A DNA stretch of 64,000 nt from Shigella phage SP21535. The notes under the pieces are model-generated. The model was not told the DNA's origin. It saw only the letters and a list, made by a program, of their open reading frames with translations, and ran no database searches. The position numbers and the translations under genes were made by a program. Location of the stretch: the sequence record PQ615101; one strand, given 5' to 3'. Positions 4,930 through 32,771 of the stretch are shown piece by piece. Positions within the stretch are counted from its first letter, which is position 1, and every line of letters begins with the position of its first letter.

Positions 4930-5604
4930 TGAGTACAGTTTTTAATACTAAACAGGTTGATGTTTTAAAAGAACCTATGTTTTTTGGTTCAGGTCTTGGA
5001 ATTGCGCGTTATGATATTCAACGACATAGGGTATTTGAAGAACTTATTGAACGTCAGCTCTCGTTTTTCTGGCGTCCTGAAGAAGTAAACTTGATGATGG
5101 ATGCTACTCAATTTAATAAGCTTCCTCAGTATCAACAAAATATTTTTACTAATAATCTGAAGTATCAATCATTACTTGATAGTATTCAAGGTCGTGCGCC
5201 GTCTGCTGTACTTATGCCATTGCTTTCAGACCCAAGCCTTGATACATGGGTTGCTACATGGACTTTTAGTGAAACTATTCACAGTCGTTCATATACTCAT
5301 ATCATGCGAAATCTTTATACTGATCCGTCAAAGGTATTTGATGAGATTGTATTAGATGAAGCTATCATGAAACGTGCTGAATCCATTGGACGTTATTATG
5401 ATGACGTTCTGATTAAAACCCGTGAATGGGAAAATGCTAAAGAATTTGTAGAACTAGCTAAAGAATCTCCTGATGCCGACTTTCGTTTAAACCGGGCTAT
5501 TAAGCAAGAAGCCGAAGCTAAACGTGCTTTAATGAAATCTCTTTACCTCTGTTTGCACGTTATTAATGCCTTAGAAGCTATTCGTTTTTATGTATCTTTT
5601 GCGT
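4929..5604 (+). CDS. nrdB: Ribonucleotide reductase beta subunit, exon 1
   Basis: Translation ends ...ALEAIRFYVSFA, the conserved NrdB helix; the frame is interrupted by the intron after gcgT at 5604. Confidence 0.85.
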
Positions 5605-5904
5605 AAAATGCGCCTTTAAACGGTAACGTTTATCGAAAACTCCTTTAATTGCTGGAAAGTCCTTTATAGGAAAACTAGCAGCCAAGGTTTTGCTTGCACC
5701 TTTAATTAGTATAATATGATTATACTTTTAAGAGGATGCACAATTGCAAAGCAAGGTTCAACGACTAGTCTTCGGACGTAGGGTCAAGCGACTCGAAATG
5801 GGGAGAATCCCTCTGGGATTGTGATATAGTCTGGTCTGCATAGTAATATGTAGCAGTTCATAAGAGAACGGGTTGAGAATTAGCGAGCTCAATCGAACAT
5901 AACG
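5605..5904 (+). other. Group I intron in nrdB, ORF-less (about 300 nt)
   Basis: Joining 5604 to 5905 restores the conserved NrdB sequence (VSFA-C-TFNFHKNMEIMEGNAK). The intron ends in G, shares core motifs with the td intron, and has no ORF of 60 aa or more. Confidence 0.8.
5688..5716 (+). promoter_or_regulatory. Middle-promoter-like element inside the nrdB intron (MotA-box-like ttTGCTTgcA, then TATAAT)
   Basis: Motif match only. It is followed by ATG and a 21-codon mini-ORF, possibly a remnant of a lost intron ORF. Confidence 0.25.
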
Positions 5905-6434: not shown

Positions 6435-8022
<1,588 letters not shown>

Positions 8023-8025
8023 GCT

Positions 8026-8083
8026 GTTTACAAGTCCCTCGTGTTGTGTTACAGTAGTCTTACTGACATAACATGAGGACTTT
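8026..8083 (+). promoter_or_regulatory. Early promoter cassette, copy A (GTTTAC -35, TACAGT -10, GAGGA Shine-Dalgarno)
   Basis: About 54-nt block nearly identical (2 mismatches) to 20179-20236; each sits directly upstream of a gene start. Confidence 0.5.
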
Positions 8084-8086
8084 ATG

Positions 8087-8590
8087 ATGGATTTACAGCT
8101 TATTACTACTGAAATGGTCGTTGAAGCATATGGTGATACTACAGATGGGATTTCTGTATTTAAAGGAAATCGTCGAGTTGGATATATCACCGATCTTAAG
8201 AAAGATTTAGCTAAGCAAGTCAAGCGGAAAACGACCATTAAAGAATATCGAAATCGTCGTCTTGAGCAAGCCCGTGATATGCTTCCTGATGCAGTTGAGG
8301 AGATGAAAGTCTTTTTAGAAAATCAGCTTGCGAAATATGATTGTGATGTGTTCATTAATCAGACTCAACCTAATGTTCATATCAATAACTGTAAATGCTA
8401 TATCATCGTTAATCCTTTGACGGGAAAACATCGTCTTGGAATCAGTAATCCAAATCGTAGCGCATCGGATATGGCAGAAGATGTTGAGGCATGCTTTAAA
8501 ATTTCTAAATCTCCGGCTGAACATCACATTTTAATTAACGGTCTTTCTCAAGACGATATTGTAGAGGTTATTAAAACTTTATGCATGTAA
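8087..8590 (+). CDS. alc: Alc, inhibitor of host transcription
   Basis: MDLQLITTEMVVEAYGDTTDGISVFKGNRRVGYITDLKKDLAKQVKRK... about 167 aa, matches T4 Alc as recalled. Confidence 0.85.
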   Translation: MDLQLITTEMVVEAYGDTTDGISVFKGNRRVGYITDLKKDLAKQVKRKTTIKEYRNRRLEQARDMLPDAVEEMKVFLENQLAKYDCDVFINQTQPNVHINNCKCYIIVNPLTGKHRLGISNPNRSASDMAEDVEACFKISKSPAEHHILINGLSQDDIVEVIKTLCM

Positions 8591-11000: not shown

Positions 11001-11039
11001 GTTTACTTTACGGTAGAGTTGTGATATTATAGCTCTACC
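11001..11039 (+). promoter_or_regulatory. Early promoter (GTTTAC -35, TATTAT -10) embedded in a stem-loop (ggtagag / ctctacc)
   Basis: Sigma70-like hexamers with 18-bp spacing; inverted repeat flanking the -10 element. Confidence 0.4.
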
Positions 11040-11060
11040 AAAACAAACGAGGAAATTGAA

Positions 11061-11588
11061 ATGAGCGAATGGTTTGAAGAAGATAAGGTTTATCGCTTTA
11101 AAACTGGGTATAAAGATATTTTTAATGAAACTTGCGGGGCTAATAAACGAATTGCCCAGTTTATTGGGGAAAATTCATTTAAAGTAAAAATTGACCCTGC
11201 AAAGAATGTTATTAGCATTAAACGCGAAATTGATGACTGCTGGTATAAAGCTGTTGATGTAATGGGCGAATCTTATAAAGTTAGCCCGTTATTTTCAATT
11301 GCTTATATGTCAGAATATTCTTTTTTCGAAGAAGTTCAAAAAGATGATTCTGTCAGTAAATTTGAAATTAAAACTGATAAAGAAATTAAGTGGAAAGTAG
11401 TAGGTATTACTGGTTGTATGTTTTATATCTATGCTCAAACTGATACGAAGGAAGAAGCTAAAAAGAAAGCTCTAGAATATCTTGAAGAGTATGAAGAAGG
11501 CCCGGTAATGATTACTCAAGATGCTGAATTAGTTTCTGTCAAATTAGTTAAAAACGTTGAAAGTAAGGAGCTGGGATCAACATGCTAA
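11061..11588 (+). CDS. Hypothetical protein (175 aa)
   Basis: ORF with RBS (gaggaaattgaaATG). Confidence 0.6.
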   Translation: MSEWFEEDKVYRFKTGYKDIFNETCGANKRIAQFIGENSFKVKIDPAKNVISIKREIDDCWYKAVDVMGESYKVSPLFSIAYMSEYSFFEEVQKDDSVSKFEIKTDKEIKWKVVGITGCMFYIYAQTDTKEEAKKKALEYLEEYEEGPVMITQDAELVSVKLVKNVESKELGSTC

Positions 11589-14639: not shown

Positions 14640-14644
14640 GTTGA

Positions 14645-14675
14645 GGACTCCTTCGGGAGTCCTTTTTTATTTTCC
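14645..14675 (+). terminator. Rho-independent terminator (ggactccttcgggagtcc plus T-run)
   Basis: Perfect 7-bp stem with tetraloop followed by TTTTTTATTTT. Confidence 0.7.
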
Positions 14676-14692: not shown

Positions 14693-14722
14693 GTTTACAG
14701 TATGGTTCCTTTGTGATAGTAT
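14693..14722 (+). promoter_or_regulatory. Early promoter-like element (GTTTACA -35, TAGTAT -10)
   Basis: Sigma70-like hexamers about 18 bp apart, directly downstream of the terminator. Confidence 0.4.
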
Positions 14723-14900
14723 TATCTTACACAAATGCATATTTTGAAGCAGCGATCCAAAACAAGGGCTTTCGTGATGCATTACAAGCCTCGAAAGGAA
14801 AAGTTTTGAAGCACAGCATGGCTAGTGGTCTAACAAAAGATGATACAATACTAACCGAAGCTGAATTTATTGATGTGTTAAACCTATTAAGAGACGCTCT

Positions 14901-17699: not shown

Positions 17700-17707
17700 T
17701 ATAAATA
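17700..17707 (+). promoter_or_regulatory. T4-type late promoter (TATAAATA) upstream of alt
   Basis: Exact TATAAATA about 24 nt upstream of the alt ATG. Confidence 0.55.
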
Positions 17708-19818: not shown

Positions 19819-19821
19819 ATC

Positions 19822-20207
19822 ATGGAACTTATTACATAATTATTTGACGGCGCTTCGGCGCCGGTTGTTAACTTAAATCCTAAGCATAAAATACCACAAA
19901 TTTTTGCTATTCAAGCCGGCGAAGAAAGCGTGCTTCTTGGATTTAGATTTTGTACATACACCTCTGGCGGTGATACAGATAAAACGTTAAACCAGGCGAC
20001 AAAATGATGCATATCGTAATGATAGGTGTTAATGAGAAACTATCATTAGTTAAGCTTAAAAACTTGGGTGGAAATCCAATTGGCGTCATTAATGCTGTTT
20101 TTGATACTGCTCTTCAAACAATGAAACAGTATAAAATCGACGCATGCCTATTACGCGTACTAAAAAGTTCAAGATGTAGTTTACAAGTCCCTCGTGTTGT
20201 GTTATAA
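19822..20207 (+). pseudogene. alt-like N-terminal paralog fragment, disrupted (stop at codon 6 and a frameshift)
   Basis: DNA and protein similarity to the first 130 or so codons of alt (MELIT*...VNLNPKHKIPQIFA...FCTYTSGGDT...KMMHIV...LQTMKQYKIDACLLRVLKS) with an in-frame TAA and a 1-nt frame change; truncated at promoter cassette copy B. Confidence 0.7.
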
Positions 20208-20236
20208 TAGTCTTACTGACATAACATGAGGAACAC
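20179..20236 (+). promoter_or_regulatory. Early promoter cassette, copy B (GTTTAC -35, TATAAT -10, GAGGA Shine-Dalgarno)
   Basis: Near-identical to 8026-8083; directly upstream of the ATG at 20240. Confidence 0.5.
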
Positions 20237-20239
20237 AAA

Positions 20240-20530
20240 ATGAAATCTTCTTTACGCTTTTTAGGTCAAGAACTTGTAGTTGAAGGCGTTATTCCTGCTG
20301 ATAATGCTTTTAATGAAGCAGTTTATGATGAATTTATCAAAATTTTTGGAACAGATAAAAAGTTCGGAATTTTTCCTTCTGAAAATTTTTCAAAGCCAGA
20401 GCAGACTGAAAGTATTTTCCAAGGTGTAGTAACAGGTAAATTTGAGTCAGAAGCTCCAGTAAAAATTGAAGTTTATATTGAAGACAGTTTAGTTGCTTCA
20501 GTTGCTGCTTTTATTTCATTCCGTAAATAA
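20240..20530 (+). CDS. Hypothetical protein (96 aa)
   Basis: ORF with strong SD from the promoter cassette; followed by a bidirectional terminator. Confidence 0.6.
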   Translation: MKSSLRFLGQELVVEGVIPADNAFNEAVYDEFIKIFGTDKKFGIFPSENFSKPEQTESIFQGVVTGKFESEAPVKIEVYIEDSLVASVAAFISFRK

Positions 20531-20536
20531 AAATAT

Positions 20537-20557
20537 GGGGACCGAAAGGTCCCCGTT
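20537..20557. terminator. Bidirectional terminator hairpin (ggggaccgaaaggtcccc) between convergent genes
   Basis: Perfect 7-bp GC stem flanked by T/A-rich tracts on both strands. Confidence 0.6.
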
Positions 20558-26798: not shown

Positions 26799-26815
26799 AG
26801 ATGCTCCTTTTATTC

Positions 26816-26827
26816 TATTTATAAATA
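26816..26827. promoter_or_regulatory. Overlapping divergent late promoters (TATTTATAAATA) for gene 51 (minus) and gene 26 (plus)
   Basis: TATAAATA present on both strands, overlapping, in the 51/26 divergent intergenic region. Confidence 0.55.
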
Positions 26828-26848
26828 TGATAAATAAAGGAGCTAAAT

Positions 26849-32499: not shown

Positions 32500-32555
32500 A
32501 AAGCACACAAAACACAATCAGAAAATGATGTATATAATGGCACCAACTCGATAAC

Positions 32556-32771
32556 ATGAGATTGATTATGAGAACTGAGGTTGTGGTGTTTACTCTTCAT
32601 GAGTCTGGAAAGTCATTCATTGAAATTGCTCGTGAATTGAACTTACAGGCGAAAGAAGTGGCTGTATTGTGGGCTCGAGCTATGACTGCTAAGAATAAAT
32701 TTGAAACTCGAGAAAAAGTTGTCTATAGAAAAAGGCATATTAATAAAAAGGTGAAAAATGGAACAGTATGA
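32556..32771 (+). CDS. Hypothetical protein (71 aa; alternative start at 32568)
   Basis: ORF upstream of rnlB, in an operon arrangement. Confidence 0.5.
   Translation: MRLIMRTEVVVFTLHESGKSFIEIARELNLQAKEVAVLWARAMTAKNKFETREKVVYRKRHINKKVKNGTV

Follow-up and report, generated by a model that had tools for sequence, protein, structure and literature searches.

A stretch of 64,000 nucleotides (nt) of the genome of Shigella phage SP21535 (sequence record PQ615101), referred to here as the window, carries a 54-nt cassette twice, at 8026-8079 (copy A), directly upstream of alc, and at 20179-20232 (copy B), directly upstream of alt.-3. Each copy holds a promoter of the T4 early type together with an inverted repeat whose 3′ arm is the following gene's ribosome-binding site, and the stem formed by this repeat is conserved by covariation. 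These two features were missed in an earlier note on this DNA, made from the letters alone, in which the repeat was described as a mobile early-promoter module. With moderate confidence, the cassette is read here as an early promoter nested in a hairpin that would mask the Shine-Dalgarno (SD) sequence and so act as an early-only translational gate. The cassettes themselves are present in phage T4, and the likely gating role of the hairpin is apparently undescribed.

In the proposed mechanism, each copy would unite a strong T4 early promoter of the sigma-70 type with the leader of its target gene, with the promoter spacer (5′ arm) complementary to the SD region (3′ arm) and the -10 box and the predicted transcription start placed in the loop between them. 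RNA made from the cassette's own promoter, right after infection, would lack the 5′ arm and present a free SD, allowing alc or alt.-3 to be translated. RNA arriving from upstream, i.e. the middle and late transcripts coming from denA-rnlA in the case of copy A and from alt in the case of copy B, would carry both arms and would fold into a hairpin of 13-18 base pairs (bp), with the SD buried and the downstream gene left untranslated. The synthesis of Alc and Alt.-3 would in this way be confined to the period of early-promoter activity, with the polymerase still reading through to whatever lies downstream.

The duplicated cassette and its predicted hairpin

The window belongs to a Tequatrovirus, is 97-98% identical to many T4-like phages of E. 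coli, Shigella, and Yersinia, and carries its early genes on the + strand in the orientation used here. The two copies are identical at 52 of 54 bases, with both mismatches falling inside the -10 hexamer (TACAGT in copy A, TATAAT in copy B), and their longest common exact run is 26 nt, as compared with a longest repeat of 16.5 nt on average and 20 nt at most in 100 simulated windows of the same dinucleotide make-up (first-order Markov). The homology extends from the G of GTTTAC to the final A of GAGGA, and the flanks are unrelated. The earlier note had reported a block of about 54 nt present twice with two mismatches, carrying a -35, a -10, an imperfect inverted repeat, and an SD, and standing directly upstream of alc and of a 96-amino-acid (aa) open reading frame (ORF) at 20240; all of this holds for both copies, at the positions that it gave, and the 96-aa ORF is T4 alt.-3. 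The stop codon of the remnant alt.-2 ORF (TAA, 20205-20207) falls within the -10 box of copy B. The coordinates of the features are collected in Table 1.

Table 1. Positions of the two cassettes, their parts, and associated features in the window
Feature	Position	Strand	Remarks
Copy A, 54-nt cassette	8026..8079	+	between rnlA (gene 63) stop 8020-8022 and alc start 8084; same junction in T4
Copy A promoter	8027..8055	+	-35 TTTACA 8027-8032, 17-nt spacer, TGn 8047-8049, -10 TACAGT 8050-8055
Copy A 5′ stem arm CCTCGTGTTGTGT	8037..8049	+	in promoter spacer, upstream of predicted start
Copy A 3′ stem arm ACATAACATGAGG	8066..8078	+	contains alc SD (GAGGA, 8075-8079)
alc, inhibitor of host transcription	8084..8590	+	driven by copy A
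Other early promoter, same architectural class	11001..11055	+	stem GGTAGAGC/GCTCTACC encloses -10; SD 8 nt past stem
Late-promoter consensus TATAAATA	17700..17707	+	20 nt before alt start (17728)
Second alt gene remnant (T4 alt.-1 and alt.-2)	19819..20207	+	
Copy B, 54-nt cassette	20179..20232	+	overlaps 3′ end of alt.-2 remnant ORF, precedes alt.-3
Copy B promoter	20180..20208	+	-35 TTTACA 20180-20185, 17-nt spacer, TGn 20200-20202, -10 TATAAT 20203-20208
Copy B 5′ stem arm	20190..20202	+	
Copy B 3′ stem arm	20219..20231	+	contains alt.-3 SD (GAGGA, 20228-20232)
alt.-3, 96 aa, DUF5498	20240..20530	+	driven by copy B; T4 annotation comparison
Bidirectional intrinsic terminator	20535..20556	.	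between alt.-3 and gene 54 (opposite strand); ends copy B transcription unit

The layout of each copy (GTTTACA, a 17-nt spacer, TGn, and a -10 hexamer) is that of a T4-type, sigma-70-like early promoter, and copy B is the best sigma-70 site between 6000 and 21000, with 11 of 12 consensus matches and the TG element. From the promoter geometry, transcription would be expected to start at about A8062 in copy A and at about A20215 in copy B; a genome-wide map of T4 start sites was not found in the literature. The record of Yersinia phage fPS-65 labels the copy A site as a "predicted early promoter". The SD (GAGGA) precedes the ATG of alc (8084) by 4 nt and that of alt.-3 (20240) by 7 nt. The cassette promoters share their organism group and their consensus (UP region, GTTTAC, TGn, -10) with the catalogued T4 early promoters (e.g. 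the Pe133295 note in NC_000866), and the accessible catalogues contain no discussion of the near-identity of the alc and alt.-3 promoters or of pairing between spacer and SD, although an earlier description is possible.

The inverted repeat in each copy (CCTCGTGTTGTGT/ACATAACATGAGG) amounts to 13 bp with two G·T pairs, joining positions 12-24 of the 54-nt cassette, in the spacer, to positions 41-53. The -10 box and the predicted start sit in a 16-nt loop, and the 3′ arm includes the GAGG of the SD. Flanking bases (AAGTCC/GGACTT) lengthen the copy A helix outward to 18 bp (8032-8082). Since the 5′ arm lies upstream of the predicted start, it is missing from the transcript of the promoter itself, and, being upstream of the -10 as well, it allows the hairpin to form only in RNA from an upstream promoter. 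The predicted folds differ accordingly between the two kinds of RNA. The full elements fold at -25.7 kcal/mol (z score -6.1) for copy A and -21.4 kcal/mol (z -4.5) for copy B, whereas the leaders beginning at the predicted starts are unstructured (-3.3 and -4.5 kcal/mol; z +0.8 and +0.4, respectively). In partition-function calculations, the unpaired probability of the copy A SD is 0.00-0.02 in read-through RNA vs about 0.6 in RNA starting at 8062, and that of the copy B GAGG is 0.00 vs 0.12-0.17 from its own start. Among the alc sequences scored, Tequatrovirus included, 9 of 11 have an SD with an unpaired probability of 0.00 in read-through RNA and of 0.32-0.80 in RNA from the own start.

Read-through is plausible at both copies. 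A likely source of such RNA across copy B is the late promoter at 17700, which is the nearest + strand TATAAATA to the cassettes; a terminator scan found no terminator between alt (from the 17700 promoter) and alt.-3, and none between rnlA and alc. The expression classes assigned in T4 by transcriptomics and proteomics (PMC9697503 supplement) place both alc and alt.-3 among the genes with early RNA and early protein. In the same data, alt, alt.-1, and alt.-2 have middle RNA with protein that is late or undetected (undetected in the case of alt.-1 and alt.-2), and rnlA has early RNA and late protein. These classes fit an active early promoter at each copy together with early-restricted protein synthesis, which falls short of proving the gate.

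A different role for the hairpin is suggested by the literature on promoter-early stem-loop (PeSL) elements, in which an early promoter with a stem-loop is followed by an SD and a start codon; there, the stem is taken to terminate or attenuate transcription, and the whole cassette to serve as a linker for recombination (Arbiol et al. 2010, PMC2839356; Comeau et al. 2014, PMC4122927). If the stem had the former function here, it would stop or damp transcription arriving from rnlA or alt, leaving alc and alt.-3 to be transcribed only from their own promoters. The stability of the hairpin is in keeping with that, as is the shift of the T4 RNA class from middle (alt.-2) to early (alt.-3) across copy B, and one PeSL stem-loop of RB49/phi1 has been reported to cut the expression of a downstream lacZ like a strong terminator (Arbiol et al., PMC2839356), a drop that is, however, equally explicable by masking of the SD. 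Neither stem is followed by a U-tract: the tails read CUUUAUG and AACACAAAAUG, thus differing between copies A and B despite identical hairpins, and other genera have A-rich tails. The loop measures 16-21 nt, and the stems are rich in AT, in contrast to RB49 with its GGGG/CCCC stems. The terminator scan, which flagged neither copy, the marks of an intrinsic terminator being absent from both, did find terminators at 14643 and 20535. Termination or attenuation is, on this evidence, a distinctly improbable function for the two hairpins.

Covariation of the two arms across genera

That the pairing matters is indicated by junctions between rnlA and alc that were gathered from other Tevenvirinae and from IMG/VR viral contigs. 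In Gelderland-, Karam-, Jiaoda-, and Dhakavirus, and in several of the IMG/VR contigs, the spacer is joined to the SD by a stem of 9-15 bp with a different sequence, set in the same order of elements: GTTTACA comes first, followed by a spacer that includes the 5′ arm, then TGnTAnnAT, and finally a 3′ arm holding the SD. The arms themselves are wholly different in sequence between lineages, e.g. TCTCCGTTTAGTT/AACTAAACGGAGA, TCCTCATTTTGTT/AACAAAATGAGGA, and AACCTCTCATTTT/AAAATGAGAGGTT. A MAFFT alignment of such sequences (A2) was out of structural register, with the stem shifting by 1-3 nt between lineages, and therefore an in-register subset (A3), duplexes computed per sequence, and a covariance model were used instead; a single consensus structure for all genera was rejected on account of the same shift.

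When 12 alc sequences from outside Tequatrovirus are placed in one register, 96.2% of the cells of a 13-bp helix are paired, and 8 of the 13 pairs have changed on both sides, a result matched by none of 500 shuffles. Sliding the partner strand by 1-3 columns reduces the pairing to 34-54%. Cognate arms form duplexes with a mean of -18.7 kcal/mol, as opposed to -9.35 ± 3.4 kcal/mol for non-cognate ones, and when the 64 kb are searched with a covariance model built from these 12 alone, the two best-scoring sites are the window's own copies (32.9 and 27.5 bits). Within Tequatrovirus, where about 17 copies were read for position and variants, seven positions vary, five of them in the loop and two on the stem side, and both of the latter variants remain able to pair (G16 to A, turning G·U into A-U, and C11 to T, turning C-G into U·G). 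As judged from these alignments, compensatory changes have preserved the alc stem in many genera of the Tevenvirinae, and the stem is under selection. An Rfam search returned no family matching the hairpin, only sub-threshold models of miRNA precursors.

Sequence comparison also bears on the level at which the stem would act. A cruciform or single-strand hairpin in the DNA could modulate initiation, e.g. through sensitivity to supercoiling, or could be the target of a DNA-binding or structure-specific protein, and a stem-binding protein was indeed speculated on by Arbiol et al. (PMC2839356). The inverted repeat brackets the -10 in every version, and the copies also fold as single-stranded DNA (-13.1 kcal/mol for copy A and -8.6 kcal/mol for copy B). 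However, when G·T and A·C mismatches were scored alike in 27 elements, the stems contained 19 internal G·T vs 4 A·C on the sense strand (p 0.003), an excess that suggests that the sense strand folds, most simply as RNA, rather than a symmetric DNA cruciform, in which the complementary strand would be left with the destabilizing A·C. Any arm sequence seems to be tolerated provided that pairing is retained, and loop length ranges from 10 to 21 nt, unlike in a protein operator; furthermore, a 13-bp DNA stem with two G·T pairs and a 16-nt loop is weak. A structure acting at the DNA level is therefore the least probable of the alternatives considered here.

The proposed gate beside known systems

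The prevalence of such stems was assessed by scanning CJY920, a complete Tequatrovirus genome, for GTTTACN-N17-TAnnnT with an SD and an ATG within 85 nt, which yielded 32 early-promoter sites. A spacer/leader duplex of -10 kcal/mol or lower is predicted at 12 of the 32 (3.0 expected from non-cognate pairs), and one of -14 kcal/mol or lower at nine (0.39 expected). Hairpins nested around the -10 are thus a feature of the class, with masking of the SD in about half of them. Apart from the alc and alt.-3 sites, complementarity between the spacer and the SD of the same site is found at four further places in CJY920, e.g. 37968, 48141, 60274, and 167185 (-12 to -21 kcal/mol).

Several observations weigh against the gate. 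Only 6 of the 12 CJY920 stems, those of alc and alt.-3 included, overlap the SD; the other six, among them the homologue of the 11001 element (Table 1), enclose the -10 and end 3-8 nt before the SD, so that the class-wide feature may be a hairpin around the -10 with another role. In Tegunavirus and Kanagawavirus, the 3′ arm of the alc stem abuts the -10 and the SD lies 2-5 nt outside the stem, and in the alc promoter of Mosigvirus there is no more than a small hairpin within the spacer. In copy B, weak pairing with the SD is predicted even for the leader that begins at the own start, making the contrast between the two kinds of RNA smaller than in copy A. The promoter nearly fills the intergenic space, where a hairpin between the cistrons could hardly avoid it, and its nesting could therefore be a by-product of compaction. 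The sequences behind the covariation and the G·T counts are related to one another, and the statistics accordingly overstate their independence. Finally, it has to be noted that the gate is inferred from structure prediction and covariation. As SD masking is found in only about half of the nested stems, and as the alc stems of some genera are non-masking, confidence in the gate is kept at a moderate level.

The stems that leave the SD free would be accommodated by a role in RNA stability or processing, in which the hairpin on read-through RNA guards the upstream cistron's 3′ end once an endonuclease has cut in the leader, or shields the SD from the T4 nuclease RegB, and in which translation of the downstream gene is not the target of selection. 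Such a role would explain the SD-free stems in half of the CJY920 nested promoters and at the alc of Teguna- and Kanagawavirus. RegB cuts GGAG/U in early SD regions (PMC3014915), and several of the outgroup 3′ arms contain GGAG. The Tequatrovirus arm, however, reads GAGGA rather than GGAG, and the helix takes in the alc SD in 9 of the 11 scored sequences even though the leader offers other positions for a 3′ arm; selection for stability or processing is thus very unlikely to be what maintains the stem.

The proposed translational gate finds its closest precedents in the T4 genes e, soc, 49, and I-TevI, in which the ribosome-binding site is hidden in a hairpin on long early transcripts and a nested late promoter gives a short, translatable RNA (PMC3014915). 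The alc/alt.-3 element shares with them the SD paired in the longer transcripts and the lack of the 5′ arm in the RNA of the nested promoter (both predicted here), and a temporal control of translation that does not stop transcription (here proposed). It differs in that their nested promoter is late (TATAAATA) and their gate blocks early translation, whereas the promoter nested at alc and alt.-3 is of the early sigma-70 type and the gate would block middle and late translation. On this analysis, it is a variant of the e/soc/49/I-TevI family rather than a member as usually listed, and the list of examples of inhibitory structures given by Uzan and Miller in 2010 (e, soc, 49, I-TevI) omits alc and alt.-3 (PMC3014915).

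With the PeSLs, the cassette has in common the early sigma-70-type promoter, the overlapping stem-loop, the SD and start codon at the 3′ end, and the repetition of similar cassettes within one genome. Copy B agrees fully with the PST/T4 consensus TTTACW-N17-TAYWAT, and copy A departs from it at one of the 12 positions; one PeSL subclass has a stem overlapping the -10. The published function of the PeSL stem is that of a terminator or attenuator, whereas here there is no terminator signature and the 3′ arm is the SD; the words "translation" and "ribosome" do not occur in Arbiol et al. 2010 (PMC2839356). PeSLs are furthermore enriched in hyperplastic regions near ORFans and indels. For the two copies here, an association with plasticity is weak: gene order around copy A is conserved between genera, no rearrangement breaks within either cassette (copy B adjoins a deletion polymorphism whose junction lies 11 nt outside), and alt.-3 is a conserved DUF5498 gene and not an ORFan. 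The match to the PeSL concept drawn in the earlier note thus holds for the anatomy and lacks support as regards terminator marks and ongoing mobility. The element belongs to known kinds, and the useful new point is the link, backed by covariation, of a PeSL stem to the ribosome-binding site.

A more general proposal can be put forward only tentatively, and with less confidence than the gate at alc and alt.-3. About one-third of T4-type early promoters would lie in hairpins that form only on read-through RNA. Those with the SD as their 3′ arm (alc and alt.-3, plus four or more additional sites in one Tequatrovirus genome) would constitute a general early-only gate, the mirror image of the late-only gate of e, soc, 49, and I-TevI. 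The PeSL stem would be mainly a translational insulator and not a terminator, and the cassettes would occasionally be copied whole between genes, temporal program included, with alt.-3 in Tequatrovirus as the example. If the gate is real, it would explain the early confinement of certain T4 proteins despite later read-through of their genes, and it would give PeSL stem-loops a concrete and testable molecular role. The element occurs in T4, among the best-studied of viruses, and drives alc, a key host-shutoff gene. For the annotation and engineering of T4-like therapeutic phages, it would mean that the 54-nt blocks regulate through the spacer and the leader too, beyond the -35 and -10.

Distribution, origin of copy B, and other sites in the window

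In phage T4, both cassettes occupy the same two places and are identical to each other at 53 of 54 positions. A blastn search found the cassette in 499 phage records at 997 places, two per complete genome, all of them T4-type; the repeats are thus not confined to one genome, and as far as blastn reaches, the idea of copies outside Tequatrovirus was rejected. When IMG/VR was scanned for exact 15-mers, 62 loci came up, among which the cassette is found only on T4-like contigs, the rest being chance 15-mers. Because it is present in T4 and in the 499 records, with two copies per complete genome, the cassette pair is described as fixed in the genus Tequatrovirus. Every copy that was read stands before alc or before alt.-3. 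Among these roughly 17 copies, the variants are private to copy A or to copy B, which leaves no ongoing exchange visible and lends no support to concerted evolution of the two.

The origin of the second copy is suggested by the promoters found at alt.-3 elsewhere. A promoter of another type, with a small hairpin within the spacer (e.g. ACACA-TGGA-TGTGT), precedes alt.-3 in Dhaka-, Gelderland-, Karam-, Mosig-, and Marfavirus, and its SD is unmasked (unpaired probability 0.13-0.56); among the genera compared, only Tequatrovirus has the alc-type cassette at alt.-3. Within those other genera, identity between the alc cassette and the alt.-3 cassette is 61-81%, a level equal to the early-promoter background, whereas in Tequatrovirus the two are 96% identical and share 14 of 14 spacer positions. 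Copy B is therefore probably the alc cassette, from the -35 to the SD, copied over a different alt.-3 promoter in an ancestor of Tequatrovirus. The copied tract is bounded by motifs already common to both promoters, GTTTACA and AACATGAGGA, and the copying probably took the form of a patch conversion anchored on these shared ends. Such copying implies that promoter-leader cassettes do move between genes over evolutionary time, and it would offer a dated example of a regulatory module transplanted from one gene to another, which bears on how such modules spread in phage genomes. The earlier idea of mobile promoter modules is borne out to this extent, i.e. as one historical transfer from alc to alt.-3 suggested by the comparison of genera; no sign of current mobility within Tequatrovirus was seen among the copies read. 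A "reciprocal swap" in Mosigvirus was also considered and is suggestive only, as it rests on a spacer match and one blastn hit against an early-promoter cassette background of 60-80%.

In the reading of the PeSL as a recombination linker, the cassette would be a portable patch of homology used for gene insertion, deletion, swapping, or mini-circle excision, with the stem-loop serving recombination. The length of 54 nt is within the homology usable for T4 recombination (under 50 bp cited, PMC2839356), and the type of cassette at a given locus varies between genera, with Tequatrovirus carrying the alc type at alt.-3. The spacers of Mosigvirus alc and Dhakavirus alt.-3 match at 12 of 14 positions, with a blastn identity of 82.5% at the alt/alt.-3 junction. 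A 520-bp ORF-bearing indel begins right after the SD of the unrelated 11001-11055 cassette, and an extra partial alc is found at the rnlA-alc junction of phage VR7. Against that stand the 997 places in approximately 499 Tequatrovirus records, where the copies read always precede alc or alt.-3, and the rnlA-alc synteny retained in 7 of 8 annotated outgroup loci. Recombination between copies A and B would, moreover, remove about 12 kb, including the DNA ligase gene and gene 31, the copy-specific variants give no sign of exchange, and the covariation of base pairs and the G·T bias are left unexplained. The only rearrangement beside copy B joins outside the cassette, as described below. A linker function is consequently considered unlikely.

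This rearrangement concerns the second alt gene, of which alt.-1 and alt.-2 are the remnant, already described in the T4 record as what is left of an ancient, incomplete duplication of alt. The second alt gene is still full-length in Serratia phage PhiZZ30 and in many other relatives, in which it precedes the same cassette and alt.-3, and alignment to PhiZZ30 shows that both the window and T4 have a 1690-bp deletion internal to that gene. Its junction is a 9-bp microhomology or direct repeat (CTAAAAAGT, 20160-20168), which lies 11 nt upstream of copy B and wholly outside it. The cassette is intact with and without the deletion and was not the crossover point, and the truncation looks like an ordinary microhomology deletion. 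The earlier note had placed copy B at the truncation point, which is approximately right, and had made the cassette responsible for the truncation, which the position of the junction contradicts.

Two further observations concern alc cassettes in other genera. Many Tequatrovirus genomes have an intergenic site with 85% identity over 47 nt to the alc cassette of Mosigvirus (spacer AACACCAAGGAAGGTG) (e.g. 66157-66202 in the phage T2 record MH751506.1), and one record annotates the site as a promoter; going by sequence, a second family of similar early-promoter cassettes is common to several genera and loci. In Gaprivervirus VR7 (88-404 of the rnlA-alc segment compared), rnlA is followed by a GGGG/CCCC hairpin with a T-rich tail, a 77-aa ORF, and the full alc, the ORF being 48% identical to the N-terminus of Alc and representing a partial duplication of alc at the rnlA-alc junction.

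Elsewhere in the window, the element at 11001 is a promoter with its -10 in a hairpin (RNA fold -16.4 kcal/mol, z -4.3), as had been proposed, but it is not related to the repeat in sequence (covariance model 14.4 bits, E value 1.1). Directly after its SD and just before the start of cd.2 lies a 520-bp segment (11056-11588) with a 175-aa ORF (11061-11588), which is absent from T4 and CJY920 and present in about 300 Tequatrovirus records, including T6, and the 3′ edge of an early-promoter cassette thus coincides exactly with an indel polymorphism. For the ORF, Pfam gave no match, and the only hit is to phrog_3710, a family of unknown function. A supposed partial copy at about 32540-32560 proved to be an 11-mer at chance level (32550-32560; three matches with at most one mismatch vs 1.35 expected, with 18 of 100 shuffles reaching three) and forms no hairpin (z -1.4).

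At 26799-26848, an inverted repeat (GCTCCTTTATT...AATAAAAGGAGC) surrounds overlapping TATAAATA motifs on both strands (26816-26827); it gives a weak match to the covariance model (17.8 bits, E value 0.25), has SD-like AAGGAG in its arms, and may be a divergent late-promoter region. A strong early-promoter match at 14693-14742 (GTTTACA-N17-TAGTAT with TGn), just downstream of an intrinsic terminator (14643-14664), has no spacer/leader stem. Two group I introns reach the Rfam gathering score on the + strand, one at 1-164, cut by the start of the window, and the other at 5588-5853 (69.1 bits), which by its position is probably the nrdB intron.

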